Positions 56,188 to 64,000 of a DNA stretch of 64,000 nucleotides are shown in pieces. The notes below the pieces were generated by a model. The model worked only from the letters and a program-made list of their open reading frames with translations, was not told where the DNA came from and made no database searches. Numbering within the stretch: position 1 is the first letter of the stretch; each line of letters opens with the position of its first letter. Made by a program: the position numbers and the translations under genes. Source of the stretch: a virus; the IMG/VR virus record IMGVR_UViG_3300017780_005043, one strand, 5' to 3'.

Positions 56188-57048
56188 TTAAATTAAAATT
56201 ATACCCTCACTTTTTTCAATAATATCAAAGAATTGGTCGAGGTTTTCCAATTCATAGCACTCTTTTAACACTTCAAACTCATTATAATCACACCAAAAAT
56301 TATTATCCTTACTCCACTTAATCAAGTCCAACGCCATTCTATACTTCTTTCTACCGTAATCTACCTTCTCGTCATCTAGTTGATACATTGATGTTTGATA
56401 TGGTGCTGCCTTCTCAATAGCTACAAACACATAATGCTCTCTACCTAGCATATCTAAGTAGTATGGCACACTAATATCGTAGCCCCAACTGTAAATGCTT
56501 TTAGTAAACTCTTTCTTACCACTGTCTAAGCAAGTTTTAAGGTCGCCAATAGTGCTTTTATTCTCTGGCAGTATATCGGGGCGAATACGCATCATCAATC
56601 CCGTCTTTTCGTCTTGCTTGTAACAAGATACCTCTCTGAAGGAATCACGCATTAACTCAACCAATGGTTTTTTCACCCTTGCGCTATCAGCCATCTTTAT
56701 AATCATTGCTGCTTCATCATCAAATACCAATTGTTTACCCGTACTCTTAGCTAAGTTTTCATACGCTGCATACTGCGCTTGTCCTTTTGCCGTTCGTTGG
56801 TCGCACTTAGGAACTATCATGTAATGGTCTTGGAAAAGATTCGGCTCTAAAACTAATTCGTGGAACGCACTACCTACTGCTAAATGCCTTCTATCTTTTT
56901 CATCATCTTTCCCTTCTCCACCATACTTATTATTAAAATAATACTTAGGGCTTTTAAGGAAGTTCTTGATGTCGGAAGCAGAAATGTAGTCTTTCTTTCC
57001 TAGATACTCTTCAAAACTATCTTTTACATATTCAACTTGGTTTGTCAT
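56188..57048 (-). CDS. PD-(D/E)xK exonuclease (YqaJ/RecB-like recombination nuclease)
   Basis: GSAFHELVLE ... RIRPDIL ... IGDLKT ... Y..Q motif order typical of the PDDEXK_1 phage exonuclease family. Confidence 0.6.
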   Translation of the reverse strand: MTNQVEYVKDSFEEYLGKKDYISASDIKNFLKSPKYYFNNKYGGEGKDDEKDRRHLAVGSAFHELVLEPNLFQDHYMIVPKCDQRTAKGQAQYAAYENLAKSTGKQLVFDDEAAMIIKMADSARVKKPLVELMRDSFREVSCYKQDEKTGLMMRIRPDILPENKSTIGDLKTCLDSGKKEFTKSIYSWGYDISVPYYLDMLGREHYVFVAIEKAAPYQTSMYQLDDEKVDYGRKKYRMALDLIKWSKDNNFWCDYNEFEVLKECYELENLDQFFDIIEKSEGIILI

Positions 57049-57055
57049 GGGGTAA

Positions 57056-57289
57056 TTATTTTTGTATTTTTTTCCAATGCGTTATTGTAGTGTTGTAATC
57101 AACTCCCTTCACATAATTTATTGACATAGATATTTTCCCGTTAATTTCTCTATAAATAGCTGTTGTAACTATTTTTTGAGTAGGTTCAGATTCAGGCGCA
57201 CCAGCAGTTGCAGGAAGGTGCATAACTTGAACTCTTTCATTTAATGGAGGGTGTTGTTTAGAGAATCTAACCCATCTTTCTTTTTTCAT
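57056..57289 (-). CDS. hypothetical protein
   Basis: 77 aa. Confidence 0.35.
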   Translation of the reverse strand: MKKERWVRFSKQHPPLNERVQVMHLPATAGAPESEPTQKIVTTAIYREINGKISMSINYVKGVDYNTTITHWKKIQK

Positions 57290-57483
57290 TACCTTCTTTT
57301 TTTAATATTCAAACTTTTACAGTCAGGGCAGCTTAGAATTGATTCATTTGAGTTAAATAATTCAGCGCAGTCATTACATTCATAGTCAAAATCATACTCA
57401 CTCATAAAATTGTTATTAGTAAGAGCTTCTATTACAGATATGGATAATGGATGTATGCCTTTTTCGTGTTTATTATTGCCCAT
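57289..57483 (-). CDS. small Zn-ribbon protein
   Basis: CNDC...CPDC. Confidence 0.35.
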   Translation of the reverse strand: MGNNKHEKGIHPLSISVIEALTNNNFMSEYDFDYECNDCAELFNSNESILSCPDCKSLNIKKRR

Positions 57484-57485
57484 TC

Positions 57486-57866
57486 TTACTTTATTCTGTT
57501 TAGTGCTTGTATCAATGCTTCGTCAAAATCTGAACCTGCATAATCACCATCAATATGATAAACCCAACGAGTAGGCGTTACCCTATCATTGTACCATATT
57601 CTTGAAACATGGATATTGTGTTTCTCTTCTAGCCAATCAATCAATTGCTGTGGAGTAGGGGCAAACGTGACGCATTCTTTAACTACATCAGGAAAATCAA
57701 GAACCCAAGTTCTACCTTCTATAAACTCGTAATGGTATATACCTAATGTATTTCGCTCTATGATACTAGCTCTTTCTCTTTTAAAATAAAAACCTAAGCA
57801 TCTAGTATTAAAATTTTTGCTTTTTGCTAATTTAGCAACATCTATATTCACAAACAATTTTTCCAT
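57486..57866 (-). CDS. hypothetical protein
   Basis: ATG start at 57866 preferred over the TTG-type 57884 start in the ORF track. Confidence 0.4.
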   Translation of the reverse strand: MEKLFVNIDVAKLAKSKNFNTRCLGFYFKRERASIIERNTLGIYHYEFIEGRTWVLDFPDVVKECVTFAPTPQQLIDWLEEKHNIHVSRIWYNDRVTPTRWVYHIDGDYAGSDFDEALIQALNRIK

Positions 57867-57867
57867 A

Positions 57868-58029
57868 TTAAAAAAGTTCTTCAATTAAATCTATCAAAGG
57901 CTTGTCGCTATGTCCTGCTAAGTATTGAAGGAAAACAAATTGAATGTTCAATACATTCGGTTCTATTCCTTTCTTTGTCAATAGCTGAAGGATTGCCTGT
58001 TTAATCGTATCTGTTGTTTCGTTTTCCAT
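57868..58029 (-). CDS. small hypothetical protein (53 aa)
   Basis: Hand-translated MENETTDTIKQAILQLLTKKGIEPNVLNIQFVFLQYLAGHSDKPLIDLIEELF. Confidence 0.3.
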   Translation of the reverse strand: MENETTDTIKQAILQLLTKKGIEPNVLNIQFVFLQYLAGHSDKPLIDLIEELF

Positions 58030-58076
58030 TTATTTTTTAAATCCCCTGCAAAGGTTAGATTGCAGGGGTTTAACTA

Positions 58077-58847
58077 TTACTGTACAGGTTTAAATAAAAC
58101 AGGTGCATTACCGTATAAAGGTGTTTTACCATCCCATTTTTCTACAAATTGCTGCTGAACGAGTAAAGGTGTTAATGAGCGCATCTTTAGCTCATATGCT
58201 TCTTTCTGCGCTCTCGCTACTATAATAGTTCTTTGAGCCTCAATGCTATCTCTTACAAGTTTGTTTCTGCTTTCCATAGCCTGCTGAACCGCCTTGTTTT
58301 TATCATTGATAGCATTTACAATAGTAGACGGGTATTTCAAACCGCTGGTCAACTGCTCTAAGTGAAACCCTTCTAACTCCAATGCTTTAGATAGTGATTT
58401 TTGAACATCGTTTTCAAATTGCTCACGATTACTAACTATTTCATCAGTAGTGTACTTATTCATCTGAAGCCTAAAAGCATCTTTCACATAGTTAAACAAT
58501 GTGGTTTGAGCCACTTCCTCTAAATCTTTTCTGTATTTCTTGAATATAGAAGGTGAATGTCCTGCTATTACAGCAAAAGATAAAGTTGGGTCAACGGTGA
58601 AAGAACTTCCGTCTTTAGCGTTTACATCAAATGCGTTGTAATCTAAAGTTTGAACAAAAGTAGGTATTTCATAAACATCTTCAGTCCACGGGTTGTACCA
58701 AACTCTACCTGTAACCAAGTTAACATCCTGAACTCCTTTATCAGTTCCGTACTGTTTAACTAAGATTCCTTCATGACCTGCATCTACTCTTGTACATGAT
58801 GCTAATGTAGCGATAAAAATAATCGCAATTAATAATTGATTTTTCAT
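58077..58847 (-). CDS. SPFH/Band-7 (prohibitin/stomatin-like) domain lipoprotein
   Basis: Signal peptide plus lipobox LASC, SPFH-like beta-rich region and a long Ala/Gln-rich helix (QQAMESRNKLVRDSIEAQRTIIVARAQKEAYELKMRS). Confidence 0.5.
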   Translation of the reverse strand: MKNQLLIAIIFIATLASCTRVDAGHEGILVKQYGTDKGVQDVNLVTGRVWYNPWTEDVYEIPTFVQTLDYNAFDVNAKDGSSFTVDPTLSFAVIAGHSPSIFKKYRKDLEEVAQTTLFNYVKDAFRLQMNKYTTDEIVSNREQFENDVQKSLSKALELEGFHLEQLTSGLKYPSTIVNAINDKNKAVQQAMESRNKLVRDSIEAQRTIIVARAQKEAYELKMRSLTPLLVQQQFVEKWDGKTPLYGNAPVLFKPVQ

Positions 58848-58863
58848 ACTGTTATTTTAAATT

Positions 58864-59112
58864 TTATTTAATTAATTTTTTGGCTAAATACGCTCCTAAA
58901 AATATATTTCCTCCTATCAATACACTAAGCAATGCAATACCTGCTAAAAAAGCAACATCACTCGGTTGATTAATAAGTTCTGTCATTTGATTGAAAAGAA
59001 TCATCTCAATAACAATTAATATTGGTAGTGCTGTAATGATTGATATTAAAATTATCTTTTTAGTTTTCATCAGATTCAAAATTATTTGAAGGAAGTTCTT
59101 CTTCACCAACAA
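58864..59112 (-). CDS. small membrane protein (2 TM)
   Basis: 82 aa. Confidence 0.4.
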   Translation of the reverse strand: MLVKKNFLQIILNLMKTKKIILISIITALPILIVIEMILFNQMTELINQPSDVAFLAGIALLSVLIGGNIFLGAYLAKKLIK

Positions 59113-59605
59113 AAGTAGAAATTTTCTCTTCTCTTGCTTTATCTTCTAAATTATTTTGCTCTTCATTTTCTTTTTCAGAACTATTCAATTCCAAGTTCTC
59201 GAAAACATCATCTAAAGCCACTTTAGCAACTGCAACAACCTCTGAATTTACAACACTACCGCTAAAACGGTCTTTAATCTTCTTCATTGTTTCTTCAATG
59301 TCGTTCGCTTGAACCAAGAAAATTTCTTTTCCTTTCTTCTCCTTACCACTATCAGTATCAGCAAATACCGTTTGGATAGTTACTTTGTAGTAGAAGTCTT
59401 TCGTTTCATCAATAACAGTATCGTTTACATTTGAACGGCTAATTGATTCCATCTTATACTCATCAATGAACCCTTTTAGCTTTTCTGCTAATTGTGTTTC
59501 TGCTTCAATGAATCCTGTATCTTTTACTAGGAATTGTCCTTTGATTGATTGGATAGTACCATTAGGCAATTGCGTAAGGTAACTAATTTTGATTTGGAAG
59601 TACAT
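59060..59605 (-). CDS. hypothetical protein
   Basis: 181 aa with an acidic C-terminus. Confidence 0.4.
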   Translation of the reverse strand: MYFQIKISYLTQLPNGTIQSIKGQFLVKDTGFIEAETQLAEKLKGFIDEYKMESISRSNVNDTVIDETKDFYYKVTIQTVFADTDSGKEKKGKEIFLVQANDIEETMKKIKDRFSGSVVNSEVVAVAKVALDDVFENLELNSSEKENEEQNNLEDKAREEKISTFVGEEELPSNNFESDEN

Positions 59606-59607
59606 GA

Positions 59608-59817
59608 TTATACTGTTTCTTTTATTTTTAATCTTTTTACTAATTTTTCTACCGACAAAGAGTTTGAAGAGTGAAAGTAGCCATCATAGACTACTTTCAC
59701 ATTTTCTTTGGTTACAGGTAGGTTTTCGCTTGCTAAACAAGCCTTGATTTTTTGTTCTAAAAAATCTCCTAGAGTAGCCATACTATTTTTTCGCTTTAGC
59801 AGTTTTAACTTTAGCAA
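59608..59817 (-). CDS. hypothetical protein
   Basis: 69 aa; start possibly at the internal MATLGDF. Confidence 0.35.
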   Translation of the reverse strand: MLKLKLLKRKNSMATLGDFLEQKIKACLASENLPVTKENVKVVYDGYFHSSNSLSVEKLVKRLKIKETV

Positions 59818-60133
59818 CTACTTTTTTTGCAGCTACTTTCTTAGTTGCTTTTTTAGCAACCACTTTAGCTACTTTTTTAGCTTTTGCTTTAGGTGCTTCT
59901 ACTGAAACTGAAATAATTTTAGGAGCTACATTTTTACCTGAAATGTACGGAGCTTTTAACGCTGGTTTTGCAACCTCTTTAGCTTTAGCAGAAACTTTCT
60001 TAGTCACTTCTTCCGCAACTTTAACCGCTTTTTTGCTTGCTTTAACTGTTTTAGCAACTACTTTTTTTGTTGCTTTCTTTACTACTTTAGTAGCTTTCTT
60101 TGCCGATTTAACGGCTTTTTTCACTGTTACCAT
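59783..60133 (-). CDS. histone H1-like Lys/Ala/Val-rich basic protein
   Basis: 116 aa consisting almost entirely of K/A/V/T. Its first 30 codons are about 90% identical in DNA to the 5' end of DGR target gene 63351..63866. Confidence 0.5.
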   Translation of the reverse strand: MVTVKKAVKSAKKATKVVKKATKKVVAKTVKASKKAVKVAEEVTKKVSAKAKEVAKPALKAPYISGKNVAPKIISVSVEAPKAKAKKVAKVVAKKATKKVAAKKVVAKVKTAKAKK

Positions 60134-60463: not shown

Positions 60464-61659
60464 TATTTCAGATTTTTTGTATTATCATGAATGTAAGCAA
60501 CAACCTTATTTATTAAGGTTCTTGAGTTGTCAATGATTTTCTGTGAATCGGCTCTTTTCAATGTTGGGAATTTTATTTCCATTAATTCTTTGGCAAACAT
60601 AAGCATTTTTTGTTTATCAGTTGCAAGATTTTCTTTATTTTTTTCTTGTTCCTGCAATTTTATTTTTTCTTCCTCTGCTTTTTTCGCTGCATTTTCAGCA
60701 TCTTGTTTCGCTTTTAACTCTGCTTGTACCTTATCTCTTTCCGCTTGTAATGCTTCATTCTTTTTCTTTTCTTCGTCAAGTGCTTTTTGTGCTGCTGCTT
60801 TTATTCTGTTTGCTTCAGCTAAGGCTTCTACCTTCATCAATTCCTTTCTTTTTTCTTGCTCATTGAAAATCACTTTCTTATCCTGAAACAACTGCTCGAA
60901 ATCATCATCACTTAATAACACTATATCTGTGTCGTGAATATAATTAACTGTTCTTAGCAGCATATTTCTTTCATTCCTTACTAACTGTACTGCTTTTTCT
61001 TTCTCTTCTCTCTCCTTAGCCTCCGCTTTCAATCTCTCAATCTCTACTCTTTGTCTTTCCTTCTCTTCTGCTTCTAACTTAGCCTTAGCCTCTGCTTCTT
61101 CTTTAGCTTTTTGTTCAGCTAATATCTTGGCTTCGTGTGCTTGCTTCAAAGTTCCGTATAGTGAATCGAATGATTCTTGCGAAAGTTCACCTAAGTTGAA
61201 TAATTCCGCATCATTGCTGTATTGGCTCACTAATCTTACTCTCTCTCCTTTCAATGCTTCACGCTCTTTCTTTTCTTGAATCTCGGCAAACTTCTCTTGC
61301 TGCTCTAAGTGTTCTTCTAGTGGTATTATTTTACCTTCAATGAAGTTGTATATGCCCTGCACCGCTTTGTTGTATCGGTTAGAATCTTCTTTTAATGCTT
61401 TGCGCACTTTATCGGCTTCTACCCTTACTGCTCTCAATGCTAAACGTGCTTCCCTAGCATCACGCATCTTTGCTTTTTCCGTAGCATCCACCACTACTAA
61501 TCCTTCTGCTTTTTTCTTCCATTGTTCCATATCAGCAATGAATGGTTCAAACTTCTCTTTTATTAGTTGGCTTGTAGAAGAGTTAATCTCTAATCCTGTT
61601 TCTGTAATGATTGTTACCAAGTTGCTTGGTGTTAAATCTATTTTTGTTTCTGTGTTCAT
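60463..61659 (-). CDS. coiled-coil Glu/Lys/Ala-rich protein
   Basis: 398 aa with long EAKAKLEAEEKERQR-type heptads. Confidence 0.4.
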   Translation of the reverse strand: MNTETKIDLTPSNLVTIITETGLEINSSTSQLIKEKFEPFIADMEQWKKKAEGLVVVDATEKAKMRDAREARLALRAVRVEADKVRKALKEDSNRYNKAVQGIYNFIEGKIIPLEEHLEQQEKFAEIQEKKEREALKGERVRLVSQYSNDAELFNLGELSQESFDSLYGTLKQAHEAKILAEQKAKEEAEAKAKLEAEEKERQRVEIERLKAEAKEREEKEKAVQLVRNERNMLLRTVNYIHDTDIVLLSDDDFEQLFQDKKVIFNEQEKRKELMKVEALAEANRIKAAAQKALDEEKKKNEALQAERDKVQAELKAKQDAENAAKKAEEEKIKLQEQEKNKENLATDKQKMLMFAKELMEIKFPTLKRADSQKIIDNSRTLINKVVAYIHDNTKNLK

Positions 61660-61886
61660 GCTTTTATTTTTTCTAAATGGTTTTTCAAATCTACTATTCT
61701 ACTTATTGCATCGTTATACATCTTTTGGCTATCACAGGTCAAAATCAAATCTCTATGTGAATCGCAAAACTTTTTAATGTCGGTTATCTTTGCTTCGGTC
61801 TTGAATTGAATTTCTCCTTCAATAGTTCTGCAACGTTCAATGTACGCTAAGATATTAACTTCTTTGCCGTGTCGCTTAATTTCCAT
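61656..61886 (-). CDS. hypothetical protein
   Basis: 76 aa. Confidence 0.35.
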   Translation of the reverse strand: MEIKRHGKEVNILAYIERCRTIEGEIQFKTEAKITDIKKFCDSHRDLILTCDSQKMYNDAISRIVDLKNHLEKIKA

Positions 61887-61888
61887 AT

Positions 61889-62224
61889 CTAAGAAAATTC
61901 AAAATGTTCGTTTTCTTTTATTATCACCGTTGAAAAAGGAAATCCTTCTTTCGGCACTTTCTCAATAGTTTCTATCAAAATCTTAGAGCCACTAAAAAGG
62001 ATGAACTTTATTCCATTCATTGAGATTTGAAGATACAAACACTTAGGATGCTTTTCTTTGAATTTAGAATCTGCCACTTTATAATCATGAACTACAATGC
62101 TTCTATTCAAAACTTTATCCATCTTGATTTTATCTCCTGAAAATCCACTCGATTCTATCTTTATGCCAAAATCACTAAACTTTTTCATGAAGCAATTTTC
62201 TTTCAAGGTTAATACAGTTGGCAT
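61889..62224 (-). CDS. hypothetical protein downstream of the RT (not Avd-like; start likely the internal MKKFSDF)
   Basis: Beta-rich; overlaps the RT 3' end by 50 nt unless the later start is used. Confidence 0.35.
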   Translation of the reverse strand: MPTVLTLKENCFMKKFSDFGIKIESSGFSGDKIKMDKVLNRSIVVHDYKVADSKFKEKHPKCLYLQISMNGIKFILFSGSKILIETIEKVPKEGFPFSTVIIKENEHFEFS

Positions 62225-63134
62225 GAGAAGTCCAACCCCTGTAAGAGGCTATTGATTGCTTATTTTTATTTTTAGCTAACATCTTTGCGAAATTTTTCTT
62301 AATTCCTTTTCTCAATAGAGTATGCGTATGATAAAACTTGTATCCTACAAAATCAATACCTCTTACTTGTACTGGGAATATTTGGTAATTATTCTTAATA
62401 CTTAATTTTAAGCGAAGTTCTAAATATTCTTTCACTTCACCAAACAATTTATGTAAAAATTCTTTGTTTGATGAAAGTATTACAATGTCATCGGCATATC
62501 TGAAATAGTATTTAACTCCTTTTTGTTCCTTCATCCAATGGTCGAAATACGATAGATAAAAGTTAGCAAGGTACTGTGAAAGGTAGTTCCCAATAGGAAG
62601 TCCTTCGGCTGAATCTATAATCTCATCAAATAGCCAAAGCAAATCTTTATCCTTAAACTTTTTTCTAATCAAGCATTTTAAAACATTGTGGTCAATAGAA
62701 GGATAGAACTTTGTAATATCAAACTTTAAGCAGTATTTAGTATTCTCAACATCCTTCAAAGATATTTTCACATTGTTGGCTGCATCGTGAATACCTCTAT
62801 TTTTGATACAACTGTACGTATCTCTTACGAAGTTAGATACAAATATTGGTTCAAGAACATTCATTATTGCGTGATGAGTAATTCTATCGGGATAATAAGG
62901 CAGTCTGAAAACTAATCTCTCTTTTGGCTCAAAAACTTTAAATGTAGTGTAAGGTGAAGTTTTGTATTTCTTATCAACCAAGAATTTATGAAGATTTAAA
63001 ATATTTTCCTCTCTATTCTTATCGTGTTGGATAATTCCATACTGTTTCTTCTTTCCTTTTCTTGCTTTTTTATCAGCAAGAATTAAGTTTTCTATACTAC
63101 AAATCCTTTCGTATAAGTTTCCTATTCGTTTCAT
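62175..63134 (-). CDS. diversity-generating retroelement (DGR) reverse transcriptase
   Basis: RT motifs 1-7. DGR-specific GLPIGNYLSQYLANFYL (I-G-x-x-x-S-Q in place of the QGxxxSP of group II introns and retrons) and the YADD catalytic box (YFRYADDIVIL). Adjacent TR/VR pair with adenine-only differences. Confidence 0.85.
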   Translation of the reverse strand: MKRIGNLYERICSIENLILADKKARKGKKKQYGIIQHDKNREENILNLHKFLVDKKYKTSPYTTFKVFEPKERLVFRLPYYPDRITHHAIMNVLEPIFVSNFVRDTYSCIKNRGIHDAANNVKISLKDVENTKYCLKFDITKFYPSIDHNVLKCLIRKKFKDKDLLWLFDEIIDSAEGLPIGNYLSQYLANFYLSYFDHWMKEQKGVKYYFRYADDIVILSSNKEFLHKLFGEVKEYLELRLKLSIKNNYQIFPVQVRGIDFVGYKFYHTHTLLRKGIKKNFAKMLAKNKNKQSIASYRGWTSHANCINLERKLLHEKV

Positions 63135-63227
63135 TTTGCTTTATTTTTTGTCTTTTTCGGTTGCCCTACCAAAGCCAATCAATTAATGTTTATTTTTTGC
63201 CAAGAGGCAAGGTTTGCACTACCTACT

Positions 63228-63306
63228 ATTTAAAGCATAGGTGAGAGCTGACATTCGTATTCGTATTCCAATTGTCGTAATTCGAGTTAGAAAAACCGAA
63301 GCCTGA
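63228..63306 (-). repeat. DGR template repeat (TR), 79 bp
   Basis: Identical to VR1 at 67 of 79 positions; all 12 mismatches sit at plus-strand T, i.e. coding-strand A. The coding strand carries AAT/AAC-rich codons (AATTACGACAATTGGAATACGAATACGAAT). Confidence 0.85.
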
Positions 63307-63350
63307 ATCGAAAGAAAACAGAACTCGGCAGCGCACAACCTTTCGCTCAA

Positions 63351-63866
63351 TTAGAGCACCCACTCCTTGTAAAGAGAAGCGATTTTTTCACTATTTATTG
63401 CATGAAGGACTAACTCTATTGATTTAAAGCAAAGGCGAGAGCCGACATCCGTATCCGCACCCCAATCGACGTAAGTCGAGTTAGAAAAACCGAAGCCCGA
63501 AGAGTTAATCTCAAACCAAGCAAAATATTTATATTCATTGTAATTATCCCAATTAGGAGTCCAACCTTCATTTAGTGCTTTAGCTATAATAATTAGCTTG
63601 TAATAAGCTACTATTGATTTTTGGTGTTCTTCAGGTAGTGCATCTACCAATGGAAGTTTTTTAGAGTTTATTTTCAACACTTTACAAGCATCTTCAAAGG
63701 ATTTTACTCTTTCTATAATAGGAAGAATTTTAACCTCTTTTTTATCAGCAACTTTCATCGCTTTCTTAGTTACTTTAGCTGTTTTAGCAACTACTTTTTT
63801 TGTTGCTTTTGTTGCTACTTTAGTAGATTTCTTTACCGATTTAACGGCTTTTTTCTTTGTTTTCAT
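63351..63866 (-). CDS. DGR target protein 1 (H1-like Lys-rich N-terminus; C-terminal VR-containing domain)
   Basis: VR encodes SSGFGFSNSTYVDWGADTDVGSRLCFKS about 25 aa from the C-terminus. The TR template would encode SGFGFSNSNYDNWNTNTNVSSHLCFK. Confidence 0.7.
   Translation of the reverse strand: MKTKKKAVKSVKKSTKVATKATKKVVAKTAKVTKKAMKVADKKEVKILPIIERVKSFEDACKVLKINSKKLPLVDALPEEHQKSIVAYYKLIIIAKALNEGWTPNWDNYNEYKYFAWFEINSSGFGFSNSTYVDWGADTDVGSRLCFKSIELVLHAINSEKIASLYKEWVL
63423..63501 (-). repeat. DGR variable repeat 1 (VR1)
   Basis: See TR. 12 of 23 template adenines are substituted; 0 of 56 non-A positions are changed. Confidence 0.85.
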
Positions 63867-63903
63867 TTTATTACATTTTAAAATTGTTTGTTTTCTCTAT
63901 TTT

Positions 63904-64000
63904 TTACTTGTCGGAAAACAAGTCATTATATTCTTTTCTGAATTGCTCTCCTGCATAAATTGATAATTCTTTTGATTTAAAGCAAAGGCGAGAGCCGACA
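63904..64000 (-). CDS. DGR target protein 2, C-terminal fragment (gene continues beyond the window end)
   Basis: Reading the minus strand from VR2 gives ...FKSKELSIYAGEQFRKEYNDLFSDK, then stop at 63904-63906. The FKS junction is identical to target 1. Confidence 0.5.
   Translation of the reverse strand, partial: VGSRLCFKSKELSIYAGEQFRKEYNDLFSDK
63976..64000 (-). repeat. DGR variable repeat 2 (VR2), 3' end only
   Basis: TTTAAAGCAAAGGCGAGAGCCGACA is identical to the VR1 3' end and differs from TR at the same 3 adenine positions. Confidence 0.7.

Follow-up and report, generated by a model that had tools for sequence, protein, structure and literature searches.

The prototype diversity-generating retroelement (DGR), that of Bordetella phage BPP-1, has the gene order mtd-avd-TR-brt, in which the template repeat (TR) neighbors the reverse transcriptase (RT) gene, and its target is one tail-fiber gene. 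The accessory gene avd is present in 74% of DGRs and is typical of these elements rather than strictly defining. Architectures that lack avd (architecture A) account for 75 of 372 DGRs, and Avd-less cassettes with more than one target have already been described (PMC5758913). The DGR of crAssphage LMMB has the order target-VR-TR-RT, in which VR is the variable repeat, carries no avd, and is placed in lineage 3 of Wu et al. (PMC7290462). Here we analyze a 64,000-nt stretch of DNA from an uncultured phage, IMG/VR record IMGVR_UViG_3300017780_005043 (the whole stretch is called the window below), that ends in a cassette of this general type. We read it as a phage-borne DGR with the Avd-less target(s)-TR-RT architecture of Bacteroidota phages, and give this reading a probability of roughly 90%.

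On the minus strand, the cassette comprises three tandem paralogous target genes, a noncoding TR, a spacer, the RT gene, and an open reading frame (ORF) for a 99-aa protein, here called ORF99. Only the target gene proximal to TR lies whole within the window. TR sits in an intergenic stretch of 216 nt, with 93 nt between it and the start of the RT gene. Five public contigs (L001-L005) encode exactly this RT and are 99.95-100% identical to the window. The principal features are listed here.

61889..62188, minus strand: ORF99, the ORF coupled to the RT gene; 99 aa, basic, isoelectric point (pI) 9.2, a candidate accessory factor
62175..63134, minus strand: DGR-type reverse transcriptase, 319 aa
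63135..63227, minus strand: TR-RT spacer, 93 nt, predicted structured RNA, Rfam RT-17
63228..63307, minus strand: TR, 80 nt, noncoding, with 23 adenines; the same TR occurs in L001-L005
63235..63252, minus strand: 3' end of TR, GTCAGCTCTCACCTATGC, resembling IMH*, the TR version of the initiation of mutagenic homing (IMH) element
63351..63866, minus strand: target gene 1, 171 aa; Lys-rich segment at about residues 1-45, variable-protein domain at 46-171 (125 aa)
63422..63501, minus strand: VR1, codons 123-149 of the 171-codon target gene 1
63429..63446, minus strand: IMH-like 3' end of VR1, with the sequence GTCGGCTCTCGCCTTTGC, which codes for the invariant V-G-S-R-L-C
63975..64000, minus strand: last 26 nt of VR2 in the coding direction; they belong to target gene 2 (198 aa), which the end of the window truncates
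L002 333-941 and 955-1551, past the window end: the two distal target paralogs

A repeat finder returned a single 80-nt direct repeat, at 63228-63307 and 63422-63501, with a spacing of 194, 85% identity, and a gap-free alignment. The copies differ at 12 positions, every one of which is T in TR on the plus strand and A on the coding (minus) strand; in plus-strand terms the changes are nine T>C, two T>A, and one T>G. Thus 12 of the 23 template adenines are changed in VR1 and none of the 57 other positions is. The chance that 12 random mismatches would all fall on the 23 adenines is P = 2.2e-8. TR reads S-G-F-G-F-S-N-S-N-Y-D-N-W-N-T-N-T-N-V-S-S-H-L-C-F-K, and VR1 reads ...N-S-T-Y-V-D-W-G-A-D-T-D-V-G-S-R-L-C-F-K.

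An earlier reading of the window, made from its sequence alone (the sequence-only reading), had described a repeat with 12 mismatches confined to TR adenines, a VR near the 3' end of gene 63351..63866, the same translations, and a TR-RT distance of 93 nt. All of these observations hold in the correct register. Its intervals do not, since they gave a repeat of 79 rather than 80 nt, with one interval off by one base. The offset of 195 that they imply scrambles the alignment and was rejected in favor of 194.

Sixteen of the 23 TR adenines are concentrated in a central AAY-rich block composed of six AAY codons, TAC, GAC, and two ACG. We read this block as the stochastic part of the TR/VR variation. 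For each target, its adenines permit about 4e9 different DNA sequences and about 3e9 different peptides, and no stop codon can be produced.

The cassette continues past the end of the window. Bases 63975-64000 are an exact copy of 63422-63447, the 3' end of VR1, in a different flank, and are the end of a second VR. Contig L002, which is 99.95% identical to the window, reaches 1454 nt past base 64000 and carries three tandem target genes encoding 171, 198, and 202 aa, with one VR in each; full copies of VR2 and VR3 are present in both L001 and L002. In VR2, 15 of 15 mismatches are at TR adenines, and VR3 of L002 has 15 at adenines plus one boundary base. Taken together, all 42 differences inside the repeat are at TR adenines for VR1-VR3, and the three VRs differ among themselves only at these positions. 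Because VR2 is cut at the window end and two targets lie beyond it, the cassette is incomplete in the window. The sequence-only reading had called the DGR complete, a description that fails on this count; it also did not list the conserved RT-coupled ORF, and Avd is absent.

The RT ORF is intact and carries, as had been reported, an I-G-x-x-x-S-Q motif (GLPIGNYLSQYLANFYL at residues 178-194, with IGNYLSQ encoded at 62574-62594) and a YADD box (residues 213-216, encoded at 62487-62498). Its sole Pfam match is RVT_1 (E 1e-17), and among PHROGs it matches phrog_1423 with 404.6 bits. The best PDB match is 8ub7, deposited as "Reverse transcriptase," which we take to be the RT of the BPP-1 DGR (E 2.6e-48, 168 bits, residues 2-307, with the IGxxxSQ region aligned). 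Other RT classes in the PDB scored at most 73 bits, led by a group II intron RT (2.5e-19) and a retron-type RT (2.7e-18). These profile comparisons favor 8ub7 and support the earlier assignment of the protein to the DGR kind, closest to the BPP-1 DGR RT, rather than to the retron or group II kinds. Its closest annotated phage counterparts are RTs of crAss-like phages (52-60% identity), including that of crAssphage LMMB, which points indirectly to kinship with lineage 3.

A scan of IMG/VR recovered 80 relatives whose RTs are 56-74% identical to that of the window. When each locus was compared with itself, 73 of the 80 showed a TR that precedes the RT gene by about 100 nt, with one to three VRs further upstream, mostly in the same layout. 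In these 73, at least 80% (usually all) of the TR/VR mismatches are at TR adenines. The remaining seven loci yielded no repeat pair; several of them have little sequence upstream of the RT gene. With 12 of 12 adenine mismatches, an RT closest to 8ub7, and 73 of 80 relatives alike, the central claim of a DGR with adenine-specific flow from TR to VR is well supported. A megablast of 61000-64000 against GenBank phages returned no match, so this is a phage without a close sequenced relative.

The resemblance to BPP-1 is extensive. The RTs are homologous over their full length (E 2.6e-48, including the IGxxxSQ region), a noncoding TR adjoins the RT gene, the VR occupies the 3' part of the target, substitutions are restricted to adenines, and the 3' ends of VR and TR differ (IMH versus IMH*). 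Both systems also have a structured RNA between TR and RT, which in BPP-1 is Rfam RT-10 (PMC5737381) and here is RT-17. In contrast, this locus has no Avd but a 99-aa basic ORF coupled to the RT gene, three small tandem targets rather than one tail-fiber gene, and a target domain lacking detectable C-type-lectin similarity.

Lineage 3 and architecture A1 DGRs, such as those of LMMB and the crAss-like phage cr60_1 (PMC5758913; PMC7290462), are similar in their target-TR-RT order and in having no avd, HRDC, MSL, or CH1 gene. With cr60_1 the cassette also shares a TR end with GTCAG where the VR has GTCGG, and an RT-17-like spacer (37.2 bits); as in crAss-like phages, its VRs end in V-G-(S/T)-R-L. 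However, the crAss-like DGRs have a single tail-protein target of about 413-486 aa, annotated as Mtd- or sulfatase-like and classed CLec3, whereas the targets here have 171-202 aa and an unrelated 125-aa core. An hhalign comparison of the target family with the cr60_1 tail-protein target was not significant, save for a 14-residue match at the VR end (E 0.078). The gene that follows the crAss RT is a holin gene and not a 99-aa ORF. As a separate matter, the annotated DGR target of cr60_1 (L087 2503-3744) contains an in-frame stop codon under translation table 11, consistent with stop-codon reassignment.

Part of the TR/VR variation appears to be fixed rather than stochastic. VR1, VR2, and VR3 share the same three differences from TR, at 63249, 63242, and 63238 (A>G, A>G, and A>T). 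These 3'-terminal differences recur in the loci of about 40 relatives, whose VRs end GTCGGnTCnCGCCTTTGC, while the TR of about 35 of the relatives' loci ends GTCAGnTCnCACCTATGC or a near variant; neighboring synonymous sites co-vary between TR and VR in these loci. Residues G142, S143, R144, and L145 are invariant in the target protein family, and the third difference is a synonymous Leu change, CTA>CTT.

A distinction between IMH in the VR and IMH* in the TR has been described for DGRs (PMC5758913), and the three fixed differences are better read as that distinction than as random mutagenesis. It was also considered that they are selected outcomes of mutagenesis, which was judged less likely because one of them leaves the protein unchanged and is nevertheless found throughout the family. 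The discriminating positions are all TR adenines, and the elements are unusual in that respect only. Accordingly, the proposal that the 12 differences between TR and VR1 are a mutagenic-homing footprint is sound as far as adenine specificity goes, but 3 of the 12 are constant in all VRs and in about 40 relatives' loci and so are not stochastic. A fourth VR1 difference, at 63304, is likewise common to all three VRs.

The spacer between TR and RT matches RF03020 (RT-17) over the full model (1-95), with a score of 46.3 bits against a gathering score of 40.4 (E 5.8e-08, span 63132-63214). When 48 family spacers were aligned, 13 consensus base pairs were predicted, 12 of them with compensatory changes, and the window spacer is able to form all 13. 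The consensus has a short hairpin following TR, a linker rich in A, and a stem that encloses three elements: an invariant GUA, which is part of a conserved UGGUA, a hairpin that varies, and a conserved GAA motif. Its predicted stems in the window are as follows.

63206-63209 paired with 63198-63201, minus strand: hairpin P1
63171-63178 paired with 63148-63155, minus strand: P2
63165-63166 paired with 63159-63160, minus strand: P3

RT-17 also occurs between TR and RT at or above its gathering score in L078, L081, and L085, and falls just under it in a Chryseobacterium koreense contig (39.7 bits) and in cr60_1. Among 13 closer relatives scanned (RT 59-72% identical), the gathering score was not reached, and the covarying structure is shared. 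The paper that reported RT-17 (Weinberg et al. 2017) tied only RT-10 to a DGR, that of BPP-1, and speculated on a DGR role for the other RT motifs (PMC5737381). In this cassette the orphan motif RT-17 is the TR-RT spacer of a DGR. Two near-identical relatives, L010 (2336-2415) and L014, show clustered substitutions and an 8-nt indel just after TR in the spacer, apparently around the variable hairpin.

The three target proteins share the C-terminal 125-aa domain and differ in their N-termini. These are a Lys-rich tail in the 171-aa protein, a hydrophobic helix resembling a transmembrane segment in the 198-aa protein, and a small domain that reads as beta-rich in the 202-aa protein. The target family comprises 286 homologs, mostly of about 125 aa, from Bacteroidota, Ignavibacteria, and metagenomes. 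None has a Pfam domain, and their alignment is conserved except exactly at the VR. An AlphaFold2 model of residues 46-171, confident (pLDDT 87.6, pTM 0.81) outside the VR loop, predicts a mainly helical domain with a long loop, modeled at a pLDDT of about 55, that carries the VR. We infer that the diversified domain binds a ligand and that each target presents it on an N-terminal carrier of its own.

Searches of Pfam and the PDB with the 125-aa domain gave no fold match and no detectable C-type-lectin similarity. To our knowledge, all solved DGR variable proteins display the variable region on a C-type-lectin fold. Roux et al. report that VR regions with an annotation are systematically C-type-lectin folds, and expect those without one to be new lectin variants (PMC8144416); the present result neither confirms nor excludes that expectation.

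Several further observations concern these proteins. Two cysteines hardly vary within the target family: C61, in a helix with the sequence FEDAC, and C146, where the VR ends in VGSRLC. They may be joined by a disulfide, which would hint at an extracytoplasmic or virion-exposed protein. A 116-aa ORF 3 kb downstream (59783-60133, minus strand) consists almost entirely of Lys, Ala, and Val, a histone-H1-like composition. The N-terminal 45 residues of target 1 (63732-63866, minus strand) resemble its beginning; a composition-corrected BLASTP comparison of the two was not significant (E 4.1). Among the homologs, P0017-P0052 include many 162-aa proteins with near-identical N-termini (MRTLQIKQDSLLVAFRNAGKEGK...) in separate 90%-identity clusters; in these sequencing-run assemblies, they resemble a single protein with numerous different VRs.

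No Avd (PF05635), HRDC, or MutS domain was found among the cassette ORFs, in a precomputed Pfam table covering 10 kb downstream, or among 70 small ORFs of the window. This absence of the known accessory genes is as described for architecture A and lineage 3 (Wu et al. 2018; PMC5758913), and for crAssphage LMMB (PMC7290462). What the cassette does encode is ORF99. Its true start is Met13 of a mechanically called 111-aa ORF (61889-62224), and it overlaps the RT stop codon by 14 nt. An overlap of 4-17 nt is kept in most of the loci and genome contigs examined, which suggests that ORF99 is translationally coupled to the RT gene. A homolog follows directly after or overlaps the RT gene in 68 of the 80 relatives, whereas the other flanking genes of the window have homologs in none. 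This layout recurs in an Emticicia sp. genome and in the C. koreense contig, each with two small genes, the RT gene, and a 98-aa gene that overlaps it; in the C. koreense contig, Mu F and Mu portal are the only phage-type Pfam matches.

In some relatives the two proteins are joined. In-frame RT-ORF99 fusions occur in L065/L066, L072, P0279 (411 aa), and P0327 (420 aa), with fragments in P0247 and P0390, and their RT segments are 51-71% identical to the window RT. The catalytic box of the L065 and L072 fusions is YCDD in place of YADD. In its distribution, ORF99 goes with the RT rather than with the target family: at the fusion loci the target is a different one, and L078-L082 have this target family and lack the ORF.

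ORF99 corresponds to phrog_19665, annotated as of unknown function, and its family has 532 representatives at the 50% identity level, with a mean pI of 8.6. The protein has no match in Pfam, the PDB, or PADLOC, and a family profile searched against the PDB and Pfam also came back empty. Like Avd, it is small and basic (pI 9.2, as compared with 9.5 for Avd) and is encoded beside the RT in the cassette. Unlike Avd, which is a helical bundle, its sequence pattern suggests a beta-rich fold, and its gene lies downstream from and overlaps the RT gene instead of preceding TR. CH1 proteins are different again, being 160-169 aa long and acidic, with a pI of 4.7 (PMC5758913). By length, charge, or domain, then, ORF99 fits none of Avd, HRDC, MSL, and CH1. 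Its linkage and fusion to the RT make it a candidate accessory subunit, and in this lineage it may serve as the RT partner in place of Avd.

By analogy with BPP-1, an RNA comprising TR and spacer would be bound by the RT through the spacer. Synthesis of cDNA would start near the 3' end of TR, with misincorporation opposite template adenines, and the cDNA would then replace the homologous VR in one of the targets. The homing site would be the VR-specific, GC-richer end (GTCGGCTCTCGCC...), while the TR version (GTCAGCTCTCACC...) would not be recognized, and it is proposed that TR stays invariant for this reason. We infer these priming and homing steps, as we do the part played by the 99-aa protein, where the targets are located, and what they bind.

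Certain observations weigh against this account. Because Avd is absent, the BPP-1 mechanism is not transferable step by step. No GC-rich hairpin was noted downstream from VR1. More than 20 further codons follow each VR, which, in a departure from BPP-1, places the cis elements within the coding region. Four assemblies (the window, L001, L002, and L004) have the same VR1, and L001 and L002 have the same VR2; no VR polymorphism was seen among the assemblies with this exact RT, which are otherwise 99.95-100% identical to the window. The case for a role of ORF99 comes from genomic linkage, and the gene is missing from cr60_1 and from nine relatives with room for it downstream of the RT gene (L067, L070, L071, L075, L076, L078, and L080-L082). 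Hence not every member of the wider clade needs it.

This last point bears on the alternative that survives best, namely that ORF99 is a hitch-hiker among the phage genes, taking no part in retrohoming, and that RT and RNA suffice. Avd-less DGRs with no accessory gene are common, as the 75 of 372 cited above attest (PMC5758913). Moreover, the crAss-like relatives and the nine IMG/VR relatives lacking ORF99 retain TR/VR signatures, and ORF99 has no detectable nucleic-acid-binding domain. Against this, ORF99 keeps its overlap with the RT stop codon in backbones that otherwise have no flanking gene in common with the window, among them those of Chryseobacterium (Mu F, Mu portal), Emticicia (ERF/methylase region), and this 67-kb phage. 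In-frame fusions to the RT in several distinct sequences, and the presence of ORF99 after the RT even where the target family differs, also speak against the idea. We take the hitch-hiker explanation seriously and yet doubt it.

An unlikely alternative is that the DGR is fossil or dormant, its footprint recording past homing and the copy in this phage no longer diversifying. The uniformity of VR1 across four assemblies and of VR2 across two is what this explanation would predict. Those assemblies, however, are so nearly identical that they may represent a single clone, and minor alleles are hidden by consensus assembly, making VR identity weak evidence either way. The intact RT ORF with its YADD box and DGR motif speaks against decay, as does the finding that TR, the spacer structure, and the IMH-like ends are all at the family consensus and that VR1-VR3 differ from one another at TR adenines only.

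Sister lineages supply further evidence against dormancy. L010 and L011 are 99.3% identical over 3 kb and differ at 20 positions, 9 of which fall within 29 nt of VR2, all 9 at TR adenines; the other 11 are clustered about 1.3 kb downstream from TR. At 99% identity and with identical TRs, the Chryseobacterium loci L088 and L089 nevertheless have different VRs. VR turnover thus occurs in sister lineages. The sequence-only reading had called the DGR active, which is borne out insofar as the footprint reflects past homing, but turnover was seen only in these sister lineages and no variation appeared among the assemblies of this phage.

The idea that the protein is an RT of some other class (retron, group II intron, or defense-associated DRT/UG) and that the repeats are paralog duplications with biased drift is effectively refuted. 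In its favor, the best NCBIfam match is the group II RT/maturase model TIGR04416, with Drt3a and retron models next, PADLOC DRT models match weakly, and one GenBank record (H6) labels a homologous RT "retron-type." The NCBIfam scores, however, are far under the curated cut-offs (119.3 versus 300 for TIGR04416, 79 versus 200 for Drt3a, and 63.5 versus 235 for retron_St85_RT, with Drt2 also below), and 8ub7 scores 168 bits where the others reach 73 at most. When 61500-64000 was scanned with Rfam at E up to 1, only the RT-17, RT-18, and RT-14 motifs appeared and no intron or retron RNA family. Paralog drift, moreover, cannot put 42 of 42 differences on one base of a noncoding copy.

The genes downstream from the cassette (56188-59605, minus strand) have DUF3799, Band_7/SPFH, and DUF4494 domains and are not tail genes. 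In Chryseobacterium and Emticicia the cassette likewise lies among early or DNA-metabolism genes, a neighborhood that is unusual for a phage DGR. The backbone in 1-58000 of the window is poorly annotated, and 7 of its 10 largest ORFs, including those for proteins of 987 and 904 aa, have no PHROG match. No tRNA genes were found in the window, and a scan of 61600-64000 for sigma-70 promoters and terminators, whose scope does not extend to Bacteroidota promoters, showed no excess over shuffled sequence.

As a DGR, this element is ordinary. Tens of thousands have been catalogued, mostly from similar metagenomes (PMC8144416), and the lineage is abundant in public metagenomes, so its discovery is not in itself surprising. 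What makes it valuable is that it exemplifies, in clean and compact form, an abundant lineage of Bacteroidota phages. More tentatively, and at somewhat less than even odds, we propose that it represents Avd-independent mutagenic retrohoming by an RT with a previously undescribed 99-aa basic partner and an RT-17-type spacer, acting on a small, mostly helical, non-lectin-like scaffold present in two or three tandem copies among nonstructural genes. Because that scaffold lies among nonstructural (early or DNA-metabolism) genes, the variable proteins may act elsewhere than at the tail tip. Reconstitution would be helped by the small size of the parts: the RT has 319 aa, its putative partner 99, and the target domain 125, and the RNA is about 175 nt long. 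Through this cassette it would be possible to test how retrohoming proceeds without Avd, with a recurrently RT-fused 99-aa protein as the candidate, what role is played by the orphan Rfam motif RT-17, here the TR-RT spacer, and whether massive variation can be carried by a scaffold other than the C-type-lectin fold.

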